Below are positions 593-64,000 of a stretch of DNA of 64,000 nucleotides, piece after piece. Positions within the stretch are counted from its first letter, which is position 1; each line of letters starts with the position of its first letter. Source of the DNA: Escherichia coli (GTDB taxonomy: Bacteria > Pseudomonadota > Gammaproteobacteria > Enterobacterales > Enterobacteriaceae); the NCBI RefSeq assembly GCF_024502345.1, contig NZ_JALDNN010000001.1. One strand, given 5' to 3'. The notes under the pieces are model-generated. The model was not told the origin of the DNA and did not search any database. It worked only from the letters and a program-made list of their open reading frames with translations. Position numbers and translations under genes: made by a program.

Positions 593-2094
593 ATGGATAA
601 CGTTGAACTTTCACCCGCAACACGCTGGGGGATGATTGCTACCGGATTACTTCAGGGTCTGGTTTGCTACCTGCTGATCGTCTGGCTTTCCGGAAAAAAT
701 CACAGTTGGATTGTTTATGGCGTGCCTGCGACCGTTGCGTTTTCATCCGTTTTACTCTTCTCCGTGATCTCTTTTAAACAGAAGCGCCTTTGGGGATGGC
801 TGGCGCTGGTGTTTATTGCCACGCTGGGGATGAGTGGCTGGTGCTTTTACTGTGGGGCGAGTTGTTTAAACTTGTTGGCATCACGTTTTTCAAAACGCTC
901 TTTTTTGCAACCGACTGGTTTATTTATCTCACGTTAGGTCTGGTTACCGCGCTGGCGGTGATCCTCGCGCGAACACAGTCACGTTTAATCGACTCTATTC
1001 AAAAGTTGTTCACGTTAATCGCCACGGGGTTGCTGCCGTTAGTCTCATTGCTAACCCTGATGTTTATCATCACCCTGCCGTTTACGGGCCTGAGCGCGAT
1101 TTCTCGCCACATCTCCGCCGCCGGGTTGCTGTTGACGCTGGCCTTTTTGCAATTGATCTTAATGGCTATTGTCCGCGATCCGCAAAAAGCGTCTCTTCCC
1201 TGGACGGGGCCGTTGCGTTGCCTGATTAAAACCGCTTTGCTGGTTGCTCCGCTGTATGTGTTCGTCGCCGCCTGGGCGTTATGGCTGCGGGTCGCTCAGT
1301 ACGGCTGGACTGTCGACCGCTTGCAGGGCGCGCTGGCGGTGCTGGTGTTACTGGTGTGGTCGCTGGGGTATTTTGTCAGCATTGTCTGGCGTAAAGGGCA
1401 AAATCCCCTTGTTCTTCAAGGCAAAGTGAACCTTGCGGTTTCGGTATTGGTGTTGGTGATACTGGTGCTTCTTAATTCGCCGGTGCTGGACAGTATGCGC
1501 ATTAGCGTGAACAGTCATATGGCGCGTTATCAGAGCGGTAAAAACACGCCAGACCAGGTAACTATCTACATGCTCGAACACAGCGGTCGCTATGGACGTG
1601 CGGCGCTTGAGTCGCTGAAAAGCGATGCCGAGTTTATGAAAGACCCGAAACGCTCGTGGGATCTGCTGATGGCGTTAGATGGGGAGCAAAGTCTTCAGAA
1701 GGTGGTGTCGGAAAAATCATTAGCCGAAAATGTGTTAATTGCCCCTGGTTCTGGTAAACCGGATGCGACATTCTGGTCGGCCTTAATCCAGGATCGCTAT
1801 AACGTGATGACCTGTATTGAAAAAGACGCCTGCGTACTGGTCGAGCAAGATCTGAATAGTGATGGCAGGGCAGAGCGGATCCTCTTTGCCTTTGATGATG
1901 AAAGATACATTGTCTATGGCTTTGATCCTGACAAGAAAGAATGGCAAGAGCTTACGATGAGTTTACTTCCGCGTGATATAACGAAAGAAAAATTACTCAC
2001 AGCTGCGAAGGATGGAAAACTGGGAACGAAGCCTAAAGCGTGGCGCGATCTTGTAGTGGATGGTGAAAGGCTGGGTGTGAATCTGAATGAGTGA
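593..2094 (+). pseudogene. yhgE: YhgE-like inner-membrane protein gene with interrupted reading frame (593..937 in one frame, 790..2094 in the next)
   Basis: Two consecutive overlapping ORFs, both hydrophobic and membrane-like; first frame opens at ATG 593 after TGA at 575 and stops at TAG 935-937; second frame is closed by TAA 775-777 and runs to TGA 2092-2094. Confidence 0.6.
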
Positions 2095-2125
2095 CAAAGC
2101 GCATCAGGTGTATTAGTCGTAAAAT

Positions 2126-2147
2126 CCGGCAGAGCCCTCTCTGCCGG
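2126..2147. terminator. Hairpin between convergent yhgE and hslO
   Basis: Perfect inverted repeat CCGGCAGAG-ccct-CTCTGCCGG; A/T-rich flank on the hslO side. Confidence 0.5.
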
Positions 2148-2156
2148 ACATACTCA

Positions 2157-3035
2157 TTAATGAACTTGCGGATCTGCCGGAGACGCGTTGTTGCGGATTT
2201 CAGCAATATCCATCGCATTGAACAGATAGTGGTTACCGCAGTAATCACAATGCATGTCAATTTCGCCATCTTCCGCCAGGATGCTATCGACTTCTTCATC
2301 AGGCAGCGTTTTCAGCGCATCGGCGCAACGTTCACGCGAGCAGGTGCATTTGAACTCCACATCCTGCGGATCGTAAACCGTCACCTCTTCTTCGTGATAC
2401 AAACGCCACAACACTTCGTTTGCCGGTAAGGTCAGCAGTTCTTCGGTTTTGATGGTTTCGGTTAGCGTCGCCAGGTGGTCGAAGTCGTCCTGCTGGGCAT
2501 TTTGCGCAGGCATTACCTGCAACAACATACCGCCCGCAGCCGGTTTGCCGTCTACGTCGCCGGTGCGAATAAACAGGCGCGTCGGCAGCTGTTCAGAACG
2601 CATAAAGTAATCTTCCAGGCAGGCCGCCAGGGTATCTCCTTCCAGACCCACCACGCCCTGATAGCGCTCACCTTCGCTCGGGGTAATGGTGATCACCACG
2701 TAACCATTGCCGACCAGCGTTTTCAGGTCGGCATTTTCTGGAATTTCGCCCTGCACGCGCGCCACACCGCGCATCTGCTGGTTGTTGTTACCGTTAATAA
2801 CCGCCAGATTCATCGGACCGTCGCCCTGCAGCTGTACGGTGATATCACCATCAAACTTCAGCGTAGCGGTTAACAGGCTGGTCGCAACCAGCAGTTCTGC
2901 CAGCACGTTTTTAACGGGCTGCGGATAATCGTGGTTCTCAAGGATCTGTTGCAGGGTTTCCGAAACGGTTACCAGTTCGCCGCGCACGGCAAAGTTTTCA
3001 AACAGATAGCGATGTAATTGGTCATGTTGCGGCAT
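2157..3035 (-). CDS. hslO: Redox-regulated chaperone Hsp33
   Basis: ORF 2157..3041 translates [21 protein letters not shown]... with C-terminal CxxC...CxxC zinc centre ([16 protein letters not shown]); start taken at the third Met (ATG at 3035) to give 292 aa. Confidence 0.93.
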
Positions 3036-3059
3036 AATCATCTCTCTTGCAGGTGACAG

Positions 3060-3461
3060 TTATTCACTGTCGCCGTGTTTAAATCGTAACAGGTCGCGGC
3101 GCTCTTTTTTGTCCGGGCGTCGGTCCGGGTGCGGCATGGTTAAGGCATTAAGTTTACGTGCCAGCGCCATTTTTTCGCGTTTCTCTACACTTTCCGCAGT
3201 CTCTTCATACAGCAAGGCAGCCTCGCTGGCGGGGCGACGCTGTTCAGTAATCGCCTTTACAATCACCGTGCGTTCGTCATTTCCCTGGCGCAGAGTGAGC
3301 GTGGCATTCAGCTCGACGATTTTGCTCGGCTTGCTGCGCTGCCCGTTGTAATGCACCTTACCGCCTTCAATCATTTCACGGGCCAGCGCGCGGGTTTTAT
3401 AAAAACGGGCAGCCCATAGCCATTTATCCAGTCGAACCTCAACAGCAGGTTTTTCTTTCAT
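3060..3461 (-). CDS. hslR: Heat-shock protein Hsp15, ribosome-associated S4-like RNA-binding protein
   Basis: 133-aa ORF MKEKPAVEVRLDKWLWAARFYKTRALAREMIEGGKV... Confidence 0.93.
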   Translation of the reverse strand: MKEKPAVEVRLDKWLWAARFYKTRALAREMIEGGKVHYNGQRSKPSKIVELNATLTLRQGNDERTVIVKAITEQRRPASEAALLYEETAESVEKREKMALARKLNALTMPHPDRRPDKKERRDLLRFKHGDSE

Positions 3462-6659: not shown

Positions 6660-7220
6660 ATGAGCAAATCATTACAAAAACCCACCATTCTGAATGTTGA
6701 AACTGTAGCCCGTTCCCGACTGTTTACCGTCGAGAGCGTGGGTCTGGAGTTCAGCAATGGCGTGCGGCGTGTTTATGAACGAATGCGTCCAACCAACCGG
6801 GAAGCAGTGATGATTGTGCCGATTGTGGACGATCACCTGATCCTGATCCGCGAATACGCAGTGGGAACTGAATCCTACGAATTAGGTTTTTCGAAAGGAT
6901 TAATTGATCCGGGTGAAAGCGTCTACGAAGCCGCTAACCGCGAGCTAAAAGAAGAGGTTGGATTTGGTGCGAACGATCTGACTTTTTTGAAGAAGCTCAG
7001 CATGGCACCGTCTTACTTTTCCAGCAAAATGAATATCGTGGTAGCGCAAGATCTCTACCCGGAATCGCTGGAAGGCGATGAGCCAGAGCCGCTACCACAG
7101 GTGCGCTGGCCGCTGGCGCATATGATGGATTTGCTGGAAGACCCTGACTTCAACGAAGCGCGTAATGTCAGCGCGCTGTTCCTCGTGCGCGAATGGTTGA
7201 AAGGGCAGGGGCGAGTGTAA
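6660..7220 (+). CDS. nudE: ADP-compounds hydrolase NudE (Nudix family)
   Basis: 186-aa ORF; Nudix box region GLIDPGESVYEAANRELKEEVG. Confidence 0.92.
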   Translation: MSKSLQKPTILNVETVARSRLFTVESVGLEFSNGVRRVYERMRPTNREAVMIVPIVDDHLILIREYAVGTESYELGFSKGLIDPGESVYEAANRELKEEVGFGANDLTFLKKLSMAPSYFSSKMNIVVAQDLYPESLEGDEPEPLPQVRWPLAHMMDLLEDPDFNEARNVSALFLVREWLKGQGRV

Positions 7221-7233
7221 ATGCGTGAAGTTT

Positions 7234-7330
7234 GCCTGATGCACAACGCTTATCAGGCTTATGGGATTCCTGCAATATATTGAGTTTTCACGATTTTGTT
7301 AGCCGGATAACGCGTTCACCCGTATCCGGC
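7234..7330. repeat. Pair of REP-like palindromic units (BIME-like) between convergent nudE and mrcA
   Basis: GCCTGATGCACAACGCTTATCAGGC at 7234..7258 and GCCGGATAACGCGTTCACCCGTATCCGGC at 7302..7330, typical REP architecture. Confidence 0.6.
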
Positions 7331-7359
7331 ATAAACAAGTGCACTTTGTCAGCAAACTG

Positions 7360-7384
7360 AAAAGGCGCCGAAGCGCCTTTTTAA
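7360..7384. terminator. Bidirectional rho-independent terminator (nudE / mrcA)
   Basis: AAAAGGCGCC-gaa-GCGCCTTTTT hairpin with U-runs on both strands, directly after the mrcA stop. Confidence 0.75.
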
Positions 7385-9937
7385 TCAGAACAATTCCTGT
7401 GCCTCGCCATTATCGATAATGGTCGTTCCCACCTCGTGCACCGCCTGTTGTGTCGGCTGCGTACCTTCGATGAAATACTCTTCGCGGCTGTTGCCACCAT
7501 TAGCTAACTGCCCGGTGCTGCGATCGATTTTCACCGTCACAATACCTGGCGGCGGCGTCAGCGGCTGCTCCGGCACACCTTCAAGAACGGCTTTCATATA
7601 AGCGTCCCATGCAGGCTGGGCGCTCTTGGCACCGCCTTCGTAACCTGATATCTGATCTTTAATCGCTCCGGAAGCCGTTGTATGACCGAGATTACGACGG
7701 TGATCATCAAAGCCAATCCAGACCGAGGTCACAACGCCCGGACCGTAACCCGAGAACCACGCATCTTTCGAACTGTTAGTGGTACCGGTTTTCCCGCCGA
7801 TATCGCGACGCTGCAAATCACGACCTGCACGCCAGCCGGTACCCTGCCAGCCTGGCTCACCAAAGATATTGGTGTTCAAAGCACTCTTAATCAGGAATGC
7901 CAGCGGAGTGTTGATGACGTGCGGTGCGTACTCCTGCGCGCCAGTCTTCGCCACTAACGCCTGATTTGCCTGCTCCAGCTGCGGCATTGGTACAGAAACA
8001 TTCTGCTGCTCGCGGGAGATAGCGACATCTTCAACATCGTTATTTTCCAGCACGTTCGATTTCTGCGTATCACCGTAAATCACTGGAATATCGCATTCCG
8101 GGCAGGCTACTTTCGGTTTCGCTTCGAAAATCACGCCGCCCTGATCGTTTTCAATTTTGCTGATAAACCACGGGTCCACCAGGAAGCCGCCGTTCGCCAT
8201 GACCGCGTAGCCGCGCGCCACCTGCATTGGGGTGAAGGACGCTGAACCCAGCGCCAGCGATTCGGTGTGGACAATGTTTTGCGCCGGGAAGCCGAAGCGT
8301 TGCAGATATTCTGCAGCGTAGTCGACGCCCATCGCTCGCATTGCGCGTACCATCACCACGTTTTTCGACTGACCCAGCCCCTGACGTAAGCGAATTGGAC
8401 CGGCATACTGCGGTGGTGAGTTTTTCGGCTGCCAGTCAGAACCGGCACCTGCGTCCCAGCGAGAAATTGGCACATCGTTCAACATACTTGCCAGCGTCAG
8501 ACCTTTATCCATCGCCGCGGTGTAGAGGAACGGTTTGATGTTGGAACCCACCTGACGCAGTGCCTGGGTGGCGCGGTTAAACTTGCTCTGATTGAAATCA
8601 AAGCCACCGACCAGCGCCATAACGGCACCATTTTGCGGATTGATCGACACCAGTGCCGAGTTCACTTCCGGCACTTGTGCCAGCCACCATGCATCGCCAA
8701 CCTGACGAACCCAGATTTGCTGGCCCGTTTGCAGAACATCGGTCACTTTACGCGGCGTCGGTCCCTGCTGAGTATCCGAACGGTAAGGACGCGCCCAGCG
8801 AACGCCTTCCATACTCAATGCGACGGTCGACCCGTCCGCCAGCATTGCCGTCGCTTCCTGAGGATTGGCGCTGGTGACTGCGGCAGGCAGCAGCGGACCA
8901 TAGGTCGGCAGCGCCTTCAGCGTATCGGTAATCTTGTTGTTATCCCACGCCGACTCGCCCACTTTCCACAGCACATTTGCCGGGCCGCGATAGCCGTGGC
9001 GCATGTCGTAGTCCAGCACGTTATTACGTACCGCCTGCTGTGCGGCCTGCTGCACTTTGCGGGTGATGGTGGTGTAAATGCGATAACCGTCTTCATAGGC
9101 ACTTTCGCCATAACGGTTATACATCTCCTGGCGCACCATTTCGCTCAGGTACGGCGCAGAAAAAGCAATCTCCGGCGCGTGATAGTTAGCGTTAATCGCC
9201 TCAGTGCGTGTCTGATCGAACTGTTGTTGGGTGATATACCCTTCATCCAGCATCCGCGACAGTACGACGTTACGCCGCGCGACGGCACGATCCATTGAGT
9301 AGAGCGGATTAAAGGTGGAAGGCGCTTTCGGCAGCCCGGCGATCACAGCCATTTCGTTCAGCGTCAGTTGGTCGACCGTTTTACCGAAATAGACTTGTGC
9401 CGCAGCACCGACACCATAGGCGCGGTAACCAAGGTAAATCTTGTTCAGATAAAGCTCGAGGATCTCGTCTTTCGTCAGCAACTGTTCAATGCGAATCGCG
9501 AGGAAGACTTCCTTAATCTTACGCATCAGCGTGCGTTCTGGACTGAGGAAGAAATTTCTCGCCAGCTGCTGGGTAATGGTACTCGCCCCTTGTGACGCGT
9601 GGCCGGAGAACAGCGCCACACTTGCCGCACGGAAGATCCCCACCGGGTCAACGCCGTGATGCTCGTAGAAGCGGCTGTCTTCCGTCGCGATAAAGGCTTT
9701 CACCATCTCTGGCGGGATTTGATCCAGCGTAACCGGAATACGACGTTTCTCACCGTATTGAGCAATCAGCTCGCCATCGGCGCTGTAAATCTGCATCGGA
9801 ATTTGCAGGCGAACATCTTTTAATGTCGCCACATCCGGCAGTTGTGGCTCGATGTAGCGGTATAGGCCATAAATCGAGCCTGCTCCCAGCAGAATGCAAC
9901 AGACTGCAAGGATCAAAAAATACTTTACGAACTTCAC
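7385..9937 (-). CDS. mrcA: Penicillin-binding protein 1A (bifunctional transglycosylase/transpeptidase)
   Basis: ORF 7385..9961; glycosyltransferase motifs (EDSRFYEHHGVD, RIEQLLTKDEILELYLN) and SxxK transpeptidase region; probable GTG start at 9937 giving MKFVKYFLILAV... (850 aa). Confidence 0.93.
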   Translation of the reverse strand: MKFVKYFLILAVCCILLGAGSIYGLYRYIEPQLPDVATLKDVRLQIPMQIYSADGELIAQYGEKRRIPVTLDQIPPEMVKAFIATEDSRFYEHHGVDPVGIFRAASVALFSGHASQGASTITQQLARNFFLSPERTLMRKIKEVFLAIRIEQLLTKDEILELYLNKIYLGYRAYGVGAAAQVYFGKTVDQLTLNEMAVIAGLPKAPSTFNPLYSMDRAVARRNVVLSRMLDEGYITQQQFDQTRTEAINANYHAPEIAFSAPYLSEMVRQEMYNRYGESAYEDGYRIYTTITRKVQQAAQQAVRNNVLDYDMRHGYRGPANVLWKVGESAWDNNKITDTLKALPTYGPLLPAAVTSANPQEATAMLADGSTVALSMEGVRWARPYRSDTQQGPTPRKVTDVLQTGQQIWVRQVGDAWWLAQVPEVNSALVSINPQNGAVMALVGGFDFNQSKFNRATQALRQVGSNIKPFLYTAAMDKGLTLASMLNDVPISRWDAGAGSDWQPKNSPPQYAGPIRLRQGLGQSKNVVMVRAMRAMGVDYAAEYLQRFGFPAQNIVHTESLALGSASFTPMQVARGYAVMANGGFLVDPWFISKIENDQGGVIFEAKPKVACPECDIPVIYGDTQKSNVLENNDVEDVAISREQQNVSVPMPQLEQANQALVAKTGAQEYAPHVINTPLAFLIKSALNTNIFGEPGWQGTGWRAGRDLQRRDIGGKTGTTNSSKDAWFSGYGPGVVTSVWIGFDDHRRNLGHTTASGAIKDQISGYEGGAKSAQPAWDAYMKAVLEGVPEQPLTPPPGIVTVKIDRSTGQLANGGNSREEYFIEGTQPTQQAVHEVGTTIIDNGEAQELF

Positions 9938-20189: not shown

Positions 20190-20232
20190 ACGGTCCCCTC
20201 GCCCCTTTGGGGAGAGGGTTAGGGTGAGGGGA
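20190..20232. repeat. GC-rich hairpin repeat, copy 1 (resembles E. coli boxC-class intergenic repeats)
   Basis: ACGGTCCCCTCGCCCCTTTGGGGAGAGGGTTAGGGTGAGGGGA; identical 43-mer recurs at 27897..27939. Confidence 0.8.
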
Positions 20233-42601: not shown

Positions 42602-43837
<1,236 letters not shown>

Positions 43838-43861
43838 ATAAGACGCGTCAGGAAAAAGATG

Positions 43862-43889
43862 TCGGATGCGGCGTGAACACCTTATCCGA
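43862..43889. repeat. REP-like element between convergent argD and yhfK
   Basis: TCGGATGCGGCGTGAACACCTTATCCGA. Confidence 0.6.
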
Positions 43890-43903
43890 TAGTTTAGTCT
43901 GCA

Positions 43904-45994
43904 TTACGCCTTCGAATCCCGCAACTTGCGACTCAGCCAAATCCCGTGATGCGGTCGCTGACGCCATGCCATCGACGAAATGGTGTGCATGGTGTTCAGA
44001 TGACCAATAACCCGCTGTAAATGCTGCTCCAGCGTACCTGCCGCACCTTCGTGCGGCTGCATCTCCGGCGAATCCATGATATTGGCATCGCCAGAACTCC
44101 CCGGTTCGTCATATTCCAGTCGCTGCTGACAACGCTGAATGGCGATTTCACAAGACTGCAAATATTCTTGCGCCAGTTCAGGTGGCAATGCCCGGTGTTC
44201 CCGTGCCAGCGTGGTCATGGCATTAATATGTTCAACAATAAACTGACTGTGCGTTACCCACAGTTTCATATCTGCCAGATAATGGCTGTTGAATGCCGGT
44301 TCCTGCATCGCCTGATTCAATGAGTTATACAGAGTGTTATGCGCCTGATTTACCCGCATTCGCTGCCAGGCCAGTGGCGTTGGTTGCGGGTCCTCGCTCA
44401 GAATCAAGCGAATCGCTTCCTGATAGGCTTCTAAAGCGTCATGGGCGTTTTTACGCAATAACCCGCTCTGCCACTGCGGCCACAGCCAGACGGTACCACC
44501 GAAAGCAATTAAACAACCAATAATGGTATCGATAAGACGCGGAAGGATGTACTGCTCACCGTTCAGCCACAACAGTTGCAGGGTATACACTGCGGTAATA
44601 GTAAAACCGACCGTCGCCCAGCCGTAGTTTTTGCGCAATATCAGGTAGCTGGCAAGGGTGGTAATCAGCATCAAGGTCAGGGTGTAACCTTCGGGAATTT
44701 TAAAGTGCAGCGCCACGCCCGCAATGATTAACCCGACCACGGTTCCCACGGAGCGATTCACAATCCTCAGACGGGTTGCGCCATAGCCATTTTGCGTCAC
44801 CAGCAATACCGTCATCAGGATCCAGTACGACTTCGGTAGATGCAGCGCGGTGCCCATCAAGCTGGCAACGCTTAACATCACACTGAGTCGTCCGGCATTG
44901 CGTAGCGCCGGAGACTTTAGTGACAGATAACTTTTCAGCGCCGGAAGTAACGGCATTCGTCGCTGTTTATCGGCCAGTAAGTCACGCGCATAGAGCGGTT
45001 TTTGGGTGCGCAGCACGCGGGCAATGCGGCTGAAGTGCCAATAGCAGAATTGCCCAACCGGATTATCCGGATGCTGGCGGGCGATTTTTTCCAGTGCGCC
45101 AATTTGCTTTTCCATCGTAAAACGCGTCGGCAGGCGATGGTAAAGAATGTCATCAGCCAGCACGCGCAGGCGAGCGGCGACGGTTTGCGCATTCCAGCGG
45201 ATAACTTCTTCCGCATGGCTACGCTCGACCAGCTTTTGCACCTCTTCCGGCTGATGCAAACTGACCGAAATATGTTCCTGTAAATCCAGCGCCTCCTGGA
45301 AAATACGCAGCATCCGCTTGTAGTCAGTATTATTTTGCGCGGAAAGCATATGCATTTGCTGATAGCACTGGGTAATTAGATCGACCGCTTTTTGCTGGCG
45401 CACCAGCAGCGGCGGCAGCGCTTTTTCAGGGTCGGTGTGCTGGGTAAGCAGGCTGTATTTGGCTTCACAATAATCTGCCAGTTCACGGTACAGCAGACTT
45501 AGTGACTCGCGCAGCGGTTGTTCGCGCCAGATCCAGAACCAAAACCAGTTAAACAATCCGTACCAGAGAGTGCCCAACGCATAGATGAGCAACGGTTCCC
45601 AGACCGGCATGTATCCCGCCAGACTGAGGGTAAAAATGGCTGCCAGCAGCGATGCGGGAAGCAATTTTGCGTGCAATGGCCCCAACTCAGCAGTGACGCC
45701 AAGTACCAGCGTTAATCCGGTCAGCAAAAAGGGCAGGGGAACATCTTTTGCCAGTAGCAGCTGTGTCAGTAAGCTACAGGTGGCAAACAGCGACGCACCA
45801 ATGATTAAGCGTTTGAAAAAACGTTTATGAGGCGTATCAAGGCCCGCAATATTGCAACAGGCAGGAACGAGAGAGAAGAGCAGACCGAATCGTAATTCGC
45901 CAAGCATTAACCCAACGGCCACGGGCAAACATAGCACCAGCGTTTGTCGTAGTGCATAGTTGATATCGGGGTGATAAATCAGTCTGCGCCACAT
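43904..45994 (-). CDS. yhfK: Large inner-membrane protein YhfK
   Basis: ORF 43904..46006; start at Met of MWRRLIYHPDINYALRQTLVL... (696 aa); multiple TM segments in both halves. Confidence 0.88.
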   Translation of the reverse strand: MWRRLIYHPDINYALRQTLVLCLPVAVGLMLGELRFGLLFSLVPACCNIAGLDTPHKRFFKRLIIGASLFATCSLLTQLLLAKDVPLPFLLTGLTLVLGVTAELGPLHAKLLPASLLAAIFTLSLAGYMPVWEPLLIYALGTLWYGLFNWFWFWIWREQPLRESLSLLYRELADYCEAKYSLLTQHTDPEKALPPLLVRQQKAVDLITQCYQQMHMLSAQNNTDYKRMLRIFQEALDLQEHISVSLHQPEEVQKLVERSHAEEVIRWNAQTVAARLRVLADDILYHRLPTRFTMEKQIGALEKIARQHPDNPVGQFCYWHFSRIARVLRTQKPLYARDLLADKQRRMPLLPALKSYLSLKSPALRNAGRLSVMLSVASLMGTALHLPKSYWILMTVLLVTQNGYGATRLRIVNRSVGTVVGLIIAGVALHFKIPEGYTLTLMLITTLASYLILRKNYGWATVGFTITAVYTLQLLWLNGEQYILPRLIDTIIGCLIAFGGTVWLWPQWQSGLLRKNAHDALEAYQEAIRLILSEDPQPTPLAWQRMRVNQAHNTLYNSLNQAMQEPAFNSHYLADMKLWVTHSQFIVEHINAMTTLAREHRALPPELAQEYLQSCEIAIQRCQQRLEYDEPGSSGDANIMDSPEMQPHEGAAGTLEQHLQRVIGHLNTMHTISSMAWRQRPHHGIWLSRKLRDSKA

Positions 45995-47383: not shown

Positions 47384-47437
47384 TTTAACTATCCCGTTGT
47401 GAAGCCGGATAGTATTTTATCCGGCGTAATAGCAGAG

Positions 47438-54890: not shown

Positions 54891-54904
54891 TACCGAAAAA
54901 GTGA

Positions 54905-54936
54905 CAAAAAAGCGGGGAATCCCCGCTTTTTTTACG
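54905..54936. terminator. Bidirectional rho-independent terminator between slyD and slyX
   Basis: AAAAAAGCGGGGA-at-CCCCGCTTTTTTT, U-runs on both strands. Confidence 0.8.
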
Positions 54937-62652: not shown

Positions 62653-62678
62653 TTACACGTTAATTAGTTTTGAATTGA

Positions 62679-62703
62679 AAAGGGCGCTTCGGCGCCCTTT
62701 TTG
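62679..62703 (+). terminator. Rho-independent terminator of the str operon (after tufA)
   Basis: AAAGGGCGC-ttcg-GCGCCCTTTTT. Confidence 0.85.
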
Positions 62704-62779
62704 CTGCCCGTAATTTGAGCTCGAAATATTTAGTCGTAATTTTGCTCGCTGAACTATGGCGCAAATAAAACTGTGCTAT

Positions 62780-62798
62780 TGTAATCATAACTATTCTC
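62780..62798 (+). promoter_or_regulatory. Possible Fur box in the bfd promoter region
   Basis: TGTAATCATAACTATTCTC matches about 13 of 19 positions of GATAATGATAATCATTATC; about 40 bp upstream of bfd. Confidence 0.35.
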
Positions 62799-62834
62799 AT
62801 TTACACTTTGCGCAGAATTTGAACGGGAGCAATC

Positions 62835-63029
62835 ATGTACGTTTGTTTGTGTAATGGTGTAAGTGACAAAAAAATTCGCCAGGCAGTCCGTCAGTTTCAT
62901 CCGCAATCTTTCCAACAATTGCGTAAGTTTATTCCTGTGGGAAATCAATGTGGTAAGTGCATTCGCGCCGCGCGCGAAGTGATGCAGGACGAGTTGATGC
63001 AGATGCCAGAATTTAAAGAGATTGCTTGA
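62835..63029 (+). CDS. bfd: Bacterioferritin-associated ferredoxin
   Basis: 64-aa ORF MYVCLCNGVSDKKIRQAVRQ... with CxC...CxxC [2Fe-2S] ligands. Confidence 0.95.
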   Translation: MYVCLCNGVSDKKIRQAVRQFHPQSFQQLRKFIPVGNQCGKCIRAAREVMQDELMQMPEFKEIA

Positions 63030-63101
63030 AGCCCACGCTTATTTTTTGACAACCAGCTAGCCCCATCTACGCTCTAATAGTGGAAGCGGAGGGACTATAA
63101 A

Positions 63102-63578
63102 ATGAAAGGTGATGTTAAAATCATAAATTATCTCAATAAACTATTGGGAAATGAGCTTGTCGCAATCAATCAGTATTTTCTCCATGCCCGGATGTTTAAA
63201 AACTGGGGGCTGATGCGTCTCAATGACGTTGAATACCATGAATCCATCGATGAGATGAAACACGCTGATAAGTATATCGAGCGTATTTTGTTTTTAGAAG
63301 GAGTCCCCAACTTACAGGATTTAGGCAAACTGGGGATTGGTGAAGATGTCGAAGAGATGCTGCAATCCGACCTGCGATTAGAGCTGGAAGGCGCGAAGGA
63401 TCTGCGTGAGGCTATCGCATATGCCGACAGCGTTCATGACTATGTTAGCCGCGATATGATGATCGAGATCCTTGCTGATGAAGAAGGTCATATCGACTGG
63501 CTCGAAACTGAACTGGATCTCATCGGTAAAATCGGCCTACAAAATTACCTGCAATCACAAATTAAAGTTAAAGATTAA
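63102..63578 (+). CDS. bfr: Bacterioferritin
   Basis: 158-aa [40 protein letters not shown]... Confidence 0.97.
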
Positions 63579-64000
63579 CGGCCTATCAGCAAACTATCCC
63601 AGCCTATAACGAAACCCGCAGCCGCCAGAAATGGCCCAAAGGGCAGCGGGTTTTTTAATGATTCTTTTCCTCTCATGAGCAGACCAATAACTACGGCTCC
63701 GCAAGCGAATGAGGCAGCAAGGAAAACCAGTCGTGGTAAGAAGGCCCATGAATGCCAGGCGCCAAGGGCGGCGAGAAACTTCACATCACCATAGCCTAAT
63801 CCTTCTTTATGGCGCAGTATACGATACCCCCAGTAAATGACAGCGAATGTGCCGTAACCAACAATTGCCCCCCATAACGCATCGGCTAAACCATCAGGAT
63901 GACAAACTTGATAGAACAAAAGACCTGACCAGAGTAACGGGCACGTAAATCTGTCAGGTAACAAGCCATGCTTTGCATCCCAGAAAAAAAGTAGGGCTGA
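63575..64000 (-). CDS. hofD: Prepilin-peptidase-like leader peptidase HofD/HopD, 3' part; start lies beyond the window end
   Basis: Reverse-strand frame open to the window edge; hydrophobic ...[30 protein letters not shown]...[17 protein letters not shown]..., typical of A24 prepilin peptidases. Confidence 0.8.

Follow-up and report, generated by a model that had tools for sequence, protein, structure and literature searches.

Three intergenic sites in a 64-kb stretch of an Escherichia coli chromosome (the whole of which is referred to here as the window) are very probably vertically inherited copies of the REP family (palindromic units), located in the 3' spacers of convergent genes, probably serving the kind of function usual for that family, and left behind by a REP-associated tyrosine transposase (RAYT) system. 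The three sites are not equivalent. Judged by its sequence organisation, the element between nudE and mrcA is a single-copy BIME-1 (RIP/RIB), whereas the yhfS/frlR spacer contains a solitary z2-like REP and the argD/yhfK spacer the remains of a y-z REP pair. All features discussed are collected in Table 1.

REP and BIME repeats, their bias for 3' ends and convergent gene pairs, the binding of IHF to BIME-1, the cleavage of BIME-2 by gyrase and the stabilisation of mRNA have been known since the 1980s-1990s. The three loci are already known E. coli features of this type, orthologous in K-12 and without any anomaly in structure or context, and their significance beyond correct annotation is small. 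The main value of the analysis lies in corrections to an earlier, sequence-only reading of the same DNA: the window has one BIME, which is of the IHF type and not of the gyrase type, REPs are present at under half of its convergent junctions, and K-12 data put Rho termination downstream of the REPs, not at the REPs.

Table 1. Positions in the window of the REP-family elements and of the neighbouring repeats and hairpins
Feature	Position	Strand	Sequence and remarks
Left conserved flank of BIME-1	7221-7233	+	aligns to flank aAACGCaAAAtT of the 38-copy consensus; directly 3' of the nudE stop TAA (7218-7220)
y-type REP, inverted (iREP) orientation	7234-7258	+	GCCTGATGCACAACGCTTATCAGGC; 13 nt past the nudE stop
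L linker of BIME-1, ~43 nt	7259-7301	.	aligned column-wise to the L linkers of the 38 copies (Escherichia, Pseudocitrobacter)
z1-type REP	7302-7330	+	GCCGGATAACGCGTTCACCCGTATCCGGC; strict pattern and profile alignment
Right conserved flank of BIME-1	7331-7342	+	ATAAACAAGTGC, compared to consensus ATGAACAAAGCG
Bidirectional intrinsic terminator, outside the repeat	7358-7383	.	AAAAGGCGCC-GAAG-GCGCCTTTTT; abuts the mrcA stop (7385-7387)
BoxC / TMECO type A intrastrand-triplex repeat	27897-27939	+	43-nt exact direct repeat, copy at 20190-20232
Partial inverted REP half	27961-27973	+	GTGCGCCGGCATC; 13 nt
Solitary z2-like REP	27974-28009	-	GCCGGATGCGATGCTGGCGCATCTTATCCGGCCTAC (window strand); GTAGGCCGGATAAGATGCGCCAGCATCGCATCCGGC (minus strand); 36 nt
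Remnant of inverted y REP	43838-43853	+	ATAAGACGC^GTCAGG; 11-bp internal deletion
Degenerate z1-like REP	43861-43890	-	GTCGGATGCGGCGTGAACACCTTATCCGAT; GTCGGAT...ATCCGAT; profile E=1.3e-6
REP-foot-like minimal hairpin, yhfA/prkB	47404-47425	.	GCCGGATA-GTATTT-TATCCGGC; 22 nt

Distribution over gene junctions and family membership

Over its whole length the window corresponds collinearly, in reverse-complement orientation, to K-12 MG1655 between 3.466 and 3.532 Mb (~98.5% identity), and it is also collinear with strain AHM8C212RI (98.8% identity). Gene names and strands were taken from the annotations of these two genomes, and translation served to verify the stop codons. There are 66 gene junctions, of which 7 are convergent, 6 divergent and 53 co-directional. 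REP-family elements are found at three of the seven convergent junctions compared to none of the 59 others (Fisher p=7.6e-4); when only spacers of at least 35 bp are considered, the numbers are three of six and none of 31, respectively (p=2.6e-3). The enrichment of REPs at convergent junctions of the window is real. The claim that REP/BIME palindromes sit at every convergent junction, on the other hand, does not hold, and reflects the fact that only three junctions had been examined.

All three REP junctions (nudE/mrcA, yhfS/frlR and argD/yhfK) are truly convergent, with the units placed between the two stop codons, and each of the loci has its ortholog in K-12, where the REPs are at coordinates 3525478-3525575, 3504790-3504825 and 3488907-3488936. 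In megablast searches, window positions 6800-7700 were recovered as nudE/mrcA in 5,425 of 5,426 complete E. coli genomes (95-99.9% identity), and matches span the nudE/mrcA and argD/yhfK junctions in 5,422 or more of these genomes. The organisation is indeed a typical enterobacterial one, as had been supposed, with REP units at convergent junctions of a typical, K-12-collinear E. coli chromosome.

Elsewhere in the window, the convergent yhgE/hslO junction has a hairpin that is not a REP, slyD/slyX has a classical bidirectional terminator (~54900-54930), and the bfr and prepilin-peptidase genes overlap, so that their spacer is zero. The slyD/slyX terminator and the one next to mrcA (7358-7383) are both bidirectional and Rho-independent, consisting of a GC-rich hairpin flanked by A-runs and T-runs. 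They differ from the REPs in having no REP sequence and in being unique rather than repeated. Convergent junctions in the window are often closed by such ordinary terminators, either instead of REPs or beside them.

A REP was defined as an imperfect palindrome of 20-40 nt with the consensus GCCKGATGCG...CGYMTTATCMGGC, and the pattern GCCKGAT-N8-30-ATCMGGC was used as a strict description of the REP hairpin. This strict pattern has four matches in the window, compared to a mean of 0.03 in 200 dinucleotide-preserving shuffles. The pattern search that had been suggested as a check thus bears out the REP-like units reported earlier, the sequences of which were confirmed and which occur far beyond chance. 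Three of the matches are within the REP loci (7234-7258, 7302-7330 and 27974-28005). The argD/yhfK unit is recognised by the family profile (see below) but not by the strict pattern, because its foot reads GTCGGAT/ATCCGAT. The hairpin in the spacer of yhfA/prkB, likewise a convergent junction, shows the opposite behaviour, as it matches the strict pattern but not the profile; it has neither a GTAG nor a U-run, folds with -14.6/-13.7 kcal/mol, and is identical in K-12. Since it has the foot pattern only, it was rejected as a fourth REP.

For the family profile, BIME-1 copies were fetched with a degenerate L-linker pattern from one representative genome per species. Chance matches in AT-rich genomes without REP arms were discarded, and 38 distinct enterobacterial copies with REP arms were kept, originating from Escherichia albertii, E. 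whittamii, other Escherichia lineages and Pseudocitrobacter. Their consensus, ...TTGCCTGATGCGCTACGCTTATCAGGCCTAC-(8 variable nt)-TGCAATATATTGAATTTGCAYGATTTTGTAGGCCGGATAAGGCGTTCACGCCGCATCCGGCATGAACAAAGCG, is a textbook BIME-1. With nhmmer, positions 8-118 of the 124 profile positions were aligned to 7229-7338 (E=7.6e-28), a match which is partly circular for the linker, as the fetching pattern was derived from the linker of the window itself, but not for the arms and the flanks. Two further matches are on the minus strand, one of 43859-43888 to the z1 arm (E=1.3e-6) and one of 27969-28009 (E=2.4e-3). No other match with E<0.01 to the 38-copy profile was found anywhere in the 64-kb window, and the three loci therefore represent its complete REP complement.

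Copy number leads to the same classification. The 106-nt nudE/mrcA element has a median of at least 35 matching places per E. coli genome, and is therefore a dispersed repeat; for the yhfS/frlR spacer a median of 8 matching places per genome was found even with megablast. No Rfam family matches any part of the window. The REP units can fold on either strand into stable hairpins of about -11 to -22 kcal/mol, and among them the GTAG tetranucleotide is intact only in 27974-28009. The units without GTAG are best read as degenerate members of the family, and not as non-members, because the remainder of each unit aligns.

A different kind of evidence is provided by strain 09A19CPO009, in which an IS1397-family element, flanked by a TCAC duplication, is present in the z1 REP loop of the orthologous BIME. 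The palindromic units of BIMEs are a known, specific insertion target of IS1397 (PMC1525189). This insertion, although a single event in another allele, independently supports the z1 unit as a bona fide palindromic unit.

Structure and variation of the three spacers

BIME-1 elements are composed of a y and a z1 REP in inverse orientation, separated by a long conserved L linker that often contains an IHF site, and occur as single copies (PMC3333891, Ton-Hoang et al.). The nudE/mrcA element resembles them in all its parts, i.e. an inverted y REP, an L linker of ~43 nt with an IHF core, a z1 REP and conserved outer flanks, as well as in being single-copy, extragenic and located at the 3' end of transcription units. 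Including the flanks it exceeds the segment 7234-7330 and extends from about 7221 to 7342. One y-L-z1 unit is present in the 164-bp spacer, and likewise in K-12 and four other alleles. The y REP matches the strict pattern, lies inside the profile alignment and has an RNA hairpin of -11.5 kcal/mol; the z1 REP hairpin has -14.7 kcal/mol on the plus strand and -16.9 kcal/mol on the minus strand.

The copy differs from a typical BIME-1 in being decayed. The CTAC tail of the y REP has degenerated to TTAT (7259-7262) and the 5' GTAG of the z1 REP to GTTA (7298-7301), while these tetranucleotides are kept in 32 and 34 of the 38 family copies, respectively. In addition, the z1 REP has a 1-nt deletion in its loop relative to K-12. 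The identity to the consensus is 82% (family median 91%, range 81.5-96%), which places this BIME-1 at the degenerate edge of the family. The GTAG is needed for both binding and cleavage by TnpA_REP, and its mutation abolishes both (PMC3333891). Because both tetranucleotides are mutated here, the element is probably no longer mobilisable.

The L linker contains a predicted IHF core, ACTCAATATATTG (7273-7285, minus strand), that matches WATCAANNNNTTR in 12 of 13 positions and is positioned as in the family, 30 or more members of which have a core with the same position and score. A match this good is found in only 2.5% of the 44-nt tiles of the window. The IHF sites that had been attributed to the REP units in general can be retained in this single case, as IHF binding seems plausible only for the BIME-1 linker.

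At its distal side, 28 nt beyond the BIME, the spacer has a separate terminator with U-runs on both strands. In a 50-nt context it folds with -15.5 kcal/mol on the plus strand and -17.3 kcal/mol on the minus strand (z=-3.2 in both cases), and as a 34-nt hairpin on the minus strand with -15.3 kcal/mol. It was found by folding, and was missed in a consensus terminator scan because the A/T-extended stem swallows the U-run. Alignment of six alleles shows that substitutions are concentrated in the BIME and not in the terminator, which is near-invariant apart from one A/C difference at the outer edge and a single substitution in the stem of EC17CM6. In this strain and in strain B, the z1 foot is partly disrupted. 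The y foot stem is kept in all six alleles except that of R14, which has an A for the first G, and the IHF core in the L linker is kept in all six. The nudE/mrcA junction as a whole has 90-99.6% identity between genomes, with most genomes in the 90-99% bands, compared to 95-99% or above for the 901-nt, mostly coding query.

The yhfS/frlR spacer is the border of two variable islands. Its z2-like REP resembles the single REPs, which account for 84 of the 584 REPs of K-12 (PMC3333891), in being an imperfect palindrome with an intact 5' GTAG, and in its extragenic position just past a stop codon. The GTAG is found on the minus, frlR-sense strand (28006-28009), 2 nt from the frlR stop, and the hairpin foot is 6 nt from that stop. 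The hairpin has a bulged stem and a folding energy of -22 kcal/mol, and paralogues of 97.6% identity are present elsewhere in other E. coli genomes. The unit differs from a simple solitary REP by the additional half-palindrome upstream, which can pair with the REP loop region to form a competing 13-bp hairpin (-25.7 kcal/mol in its extended form). In the K-12 ortholog this region is a perfect 13-bp inverted repeat.

A second and separate repeat family, BoxC, shares the yhfS/frlR spacer with the REP, and had been overlooked in the sequence-only reading. Both BoxC copies of the window fit the TMECO consensus for BoxC/PIT/TMECO repeats (CCCTCNCCC-N3-6-GGGNGAGGG-N3-GGGNGAGGG; PMC4666352) exactly, with TTA as the second loop. 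They also resemble these repeats in being located in variable intergenic regions, and paralogues with 100% identity are present at other places in E. coli genomes. The two identical 43-nt direct repeats bracket the yhfZ-yhfS island in the window. Strain PSUO2 is without the frl operon, whereas the O157 strain PA2 is without yhfZ-yhfS and retains exactly one BoxC and the REP. In strain 06-00048 the BoxC is deleted and its neighbours are unaffected.

The z1-like REP of the argD/yhfK spacer, 13 nt past the yhfK stop and 23 nt past the argD stop, has a hairpin of -13.5 kcal/mol and carries ATAG/CTAT where CTAC/GTAG is expected. It is similar to a solitary REP in matching the z1 arm and in its extragenic position just past a stop codon, but differs by the loss of both GTAG and the outer G-C foot pairs, and as the survivor of a former pair. 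In strain AST85 both partners are still present at this junction, a full inverted y REP (ATAAGACGCGTCAGCGTCGCATCAGGC) and a z REP with CTAC (...ATCCGACCTAC), and 43838-43853 can therefore be recognised as what is left of a y REP after an internal deletion of 11 bp. We read the locus as a ruined y-z REP pair, in which the y REP is internally deleted and the z REP has become degenerate. The 7-nt linker (AAAAGAT) between the y and z REPs of AST85 is BIME-2-like or atypical. BIME-2 elements consist of tandem y/z2 pairs with short S/s/l/r linkers; the argD/yhfK spacer of the window differs from these by its deleted y REP and by the lack of a tandem array, and no BIME-2 array was found within the window with either the strict pattern or the profile.

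The earlier designation REP/BIME is thus correct for all three loci with respect to the REP family, but as a BIME only for nudE/mrcA, the other two being a solitary REP and a decayed pair. The three spacers are hotspots of strain variation, as is evident from the IS1397-family insertion, the gain and loss of islands at BoxC/REP borders, and the internal deletions.

Transcript ends, proposed function and neutral decay

The REPs had been taken to mark likely transcript 3' ends, for which 3'-end RNA mapping was suggested as a check. Published Term-seq data of K-12 for three growth conditions (PMC7815308 supplements) do not bear this out, as no dominant 3' end is reported inside any of the three orthologous spacers, although this absence is weak evidence because the genes at nudE/mrcA, yhfS/frlR and argD/yhfK are weakly expressed. 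Rho termination regions of K-12 have been mapped downstream of all three REPs (PMC7815308, Adams et al. 2021, supplementary file 2), at 3524915(-), antisense to mrcA and with a Rho score of 9.9, at 3504972(+), antisense to yhfS, and at 3489306(+), antisense to argD. According to the model put forward by Peters et al. and by Dar and Sorek, Rho stops transcription downstream, after which 3'-5' exonucleases trim the transcript back to a hairpin (PMC6061677); REP hairpins have been described as a shield against PNPase and RNase II for transcripts terminated by Rho (PMC6061677). The lack of 3' ends in the spacers together with the downstream Rho regions fits this model. Given the missing Term-seq ends, the downstream position of Rho termination and the presence of a separate terminator (7358-7383) at nudE/mrcA, the REPs are at best processed-end or stabiliser hairpins, and not termination sites.

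We propose that the REPs act at two levels, by analogy with other members of the family. As DNA, the BIME-1 linker would bind IHF. As RNA, the REPs would form hairpins of -11 to -22 kcal/mol in the 3' UTRs of nudE, frlR and yhfK, which, with Rho-dependent termination occurring further downstream as the K-12 data indicate, could block the 3'-5' exonucleases. At each junction only one gene has a REP hairpin 6-13 nt past its stop codon, i.e. nudE (13 nt), frlR (6 nt) and yhfK (13 nt). All these distances are inside the reported range of stop-codon distances (<16 nt) at which REPs lower translation (Liang et al. 2015, as summarised in PMC12306157), and the units could damp translation termination of that one gene. 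A more speculative extension, which we regard as rather unlikely, is that the retained REPs would stall terminating ribosomes and tune the output of nudE, frlR and yhfK via trans-translation, and that an IHF-bound BIME-1 would insulate nudE from mrcA. With respect to origin, the copies are in all likelihood non-autonomous relics of the TnpA_REP (RAYT) system. The GTAG needed by TnpA_REP has been lost at two loci out of three, which are therefore probably immobile fossils.

A serious rival for function is that the REP copies do nothing for the host, and are decaying selfish remnants of TnpA_REP (RAYT) that persist where insertion is harmless. We consider this a real possibility, albeit one towards which we do not incline. 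The variability of the spacers, the decay of the BIME and the deletion at argD/yhfK fit neutral decay as well as they fit function. Both tetranucleotides of the BIME-1 are mutated (to GTTA and TTAT) where 34 and 32 of the 38 copies have kept them, its identity of 82% to the consensus is at the family minimum, and the nudE/mrcA spacer is a polymorphism hotspot with hairpin-weakening changes in some lineages, such as the broken z1 foot of strain B. The 11-bp internal deletion in the y REP at argD/yhfK, the loss of BoxC from strain 06-00048 without effect on its neighbours, and the lack of K-12 Term-seq 3' ends at REP sites point in the same direction, and it has been argued that convergent spacers are harmless landing sites (PMC1525189). 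What neutral decay explains less readily is that the BIME-1 junction is covered in 5,422 or more of the 5,426 genomes although the element seems immobile, that the y foot stem is intact in all alleles but R14 and the IHF core in six out of six, and that at every locus one stop codon has a hairpin less than 15 nt away. None of these points settles the matter.

REPs as terminators, gyrase sites or chance palindromes

It is improbable that the REPs themselves are the transcription terminators of the convergent genes. Their location would be appropriate, as all three directly follow stop codons, and an attenuating effect of REPs/BIMEs on transcription has been reported for some contexts (Espeli et al. 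2001, cited in PMC6061677; introduction of PMC3333891). However, no U-run directly follows any REP hairpin in the window, as would be expected of a Rho-independent terminator, and at nudE/mrcA a bidirectional intrinsic terminator is available 28 nt beyond the BIME. Moreover, the bicyclomycin-sensitive (Rho) regions of K-12 are found downstream of the REPs, antisense to mrcA, yhfS and argD, implying that transcription passes through the REPs. According to Dar and Sorek, such hairpins define processed ends and not termination points (PMC6061677).

Little credence can also be given to the view that DNA gyrase prefers these palindromes and there removes positive supercoils between convergent units; gyrase binding sites were among the features they had been taken to mark. 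Positive supercoils do accumulate at convergent junctions (PMC1525189), and binding of gyrase to REP DNA in vitro as well as cleavage of BIMEs in vivo have been reported (Yang and Ames 1988; Espeli and Boccard 1997, both as cited in PMC6379681). In genome-wide Topo-seq, however, in vivo gyrase cleavage sites were over-represented in BIME-2, chiefly within the y REPs, and a little scarcer than expected at IHF sites (PMC6379681). The window has one BIME-1 of the IHF type, a solitary z2-like REP, and a degenerate z REP whose y partner carries a deletion, and BIME-2 is absent. The gyrase behaviour documented for BIME-2 should not be carried over to the REPs of this window.

That the three loci are chance palindromes or gene-specific hairpins merely resembling REPs, for which the yhfA/prkB hairpin (47404-47425) with its REP-like foot and no detectable family membership provides an example, is refuted by the four strict matches where 0.03 are expected, the profile E-values of 7.6e-28 to 2.4e-3, the at least 35 matching places per genome of the nudE/mrcA element, and the insertion into the z1 loop of 09A19CPO009 of an IS element that targets palindromic units.

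BoxC repeats and variation at the REP-bearing junctions

The 7.7-kb cluster yhfZ-yhfY-yhfX-yhfW-php-yhfU-yhfT-yhfS carries one copy of a BoxC/TMECO repeat on each side (see table). In the O157 strain PA2, precisely this cluster is absent and a single BoxC is left, the outcome that recombination of one copy with the other would be expected to produce. In strain 06-00048 the BoxC at yhfS/frlR is missing, and in strain PSUO2 the entire frl operon. In the 3' spacer of yhfS, the window has 8 nt (TTCGGAAA, 27867–27874) that are not present in K-12. Since strain 06-00048 carries a similar stretch, TTCGGCAA, at this place, the difference probably reflects a small deletion in K-12.

The argD/yhfK junction (43770–43970) has its closest counterpart among 5,426 genomes at 97.0% identity, the majority being 90–95% identical. 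The spacer itself shows 89.7% identity to K-12, and the identity of the junction is far lower than the window mean of about 98.5%. This allele is unusual, which suggests either an uncommon lineage or local recombination at this place. At the nudE/mrcA BIME, strain 09A19CPO009 contains an IS3 element of the IS1397 family within the loop of the z1 REP (positions 1640–3090 of its sequence L115, orthologous to window 7302–7330), flanked by a TCAC duplication.

Hairpins and transcript ends outside the three REP loci

Repeat, hairpin and 3'-end features of the window
Feature	Window position	Strand/orientation	Location	Details
BoxC/TMECO (intrastrand-triplex) repeat, 43 nt	20190-20232	direct		identical to second copy
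BoxC/TMECO (intrastrand-triplex) repeat, 43 nt	27897-27939	direct		identical to first copy
Term-seq 3' end	about 6745	- (K-12)	nudE-internal	K-12 3526061-3526064; Adams et al., PMC7815308
GCCGGATAGTATTTTATCCGGC hairpin	47404-47425		between convergent yhfA and prkB	perfect 8-bp stem, identical to REP foot
CCGGCAGAG...CTCTGCCGG hairpin, non-REP	2124-2150		yhgE/hslO convergent junction	11 bp; -20.6 kcal/mol

The yhfA/prkB hairpin, which has the same sequence in K-12, contains neither GTAG nor a U-run and gave no match with the BIME-1 profile (built from 38 copies of other Enterobacteriaceae); it may be a REP of which the top has been deleted, or else an independent hairpin. On the hslO-sense strand, AUUUU comes after the hairpin at the yhgE/hslO junction, and in K-12 a Rho termination region has been reported antisense to yhgE at 3530894(+) (Adams et al., PMC7815308). 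In two growth conditions of the same study, the nudE ORF showed a strong Term-seq 3' end lying about 85 nt inside it; this end, which has no connection with the REPs, is a hint of premature termination or of processing inside the gene.

A probable pseudogene and absent genes towards the ends of the window

Relative to both K-12 and strain AHM8C212RI, yhgE (593–2094) has a net internal deletion of 223 bp near 805–842. The deletion changes the frame and leaves two ORFs (593–937 and 790–2094), and yhgE is therefore probably a pseudogene in this strain. At the other end (62653–64000), the window lacks chiA, which in K-12 separates bfd from tufA, so that tufA is directly followed by bfd and bfr. 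Strain AHM8C212RI has the same tuf-bfd-bfr-prepilin layout, with rpsJ after the prepilin peptidase gene; hence most of the gsp cluster, past the window end, is probably missing in the window's strain too. The bfd-bfr stretch (62778–63559) shows only 79% identity to K-12.
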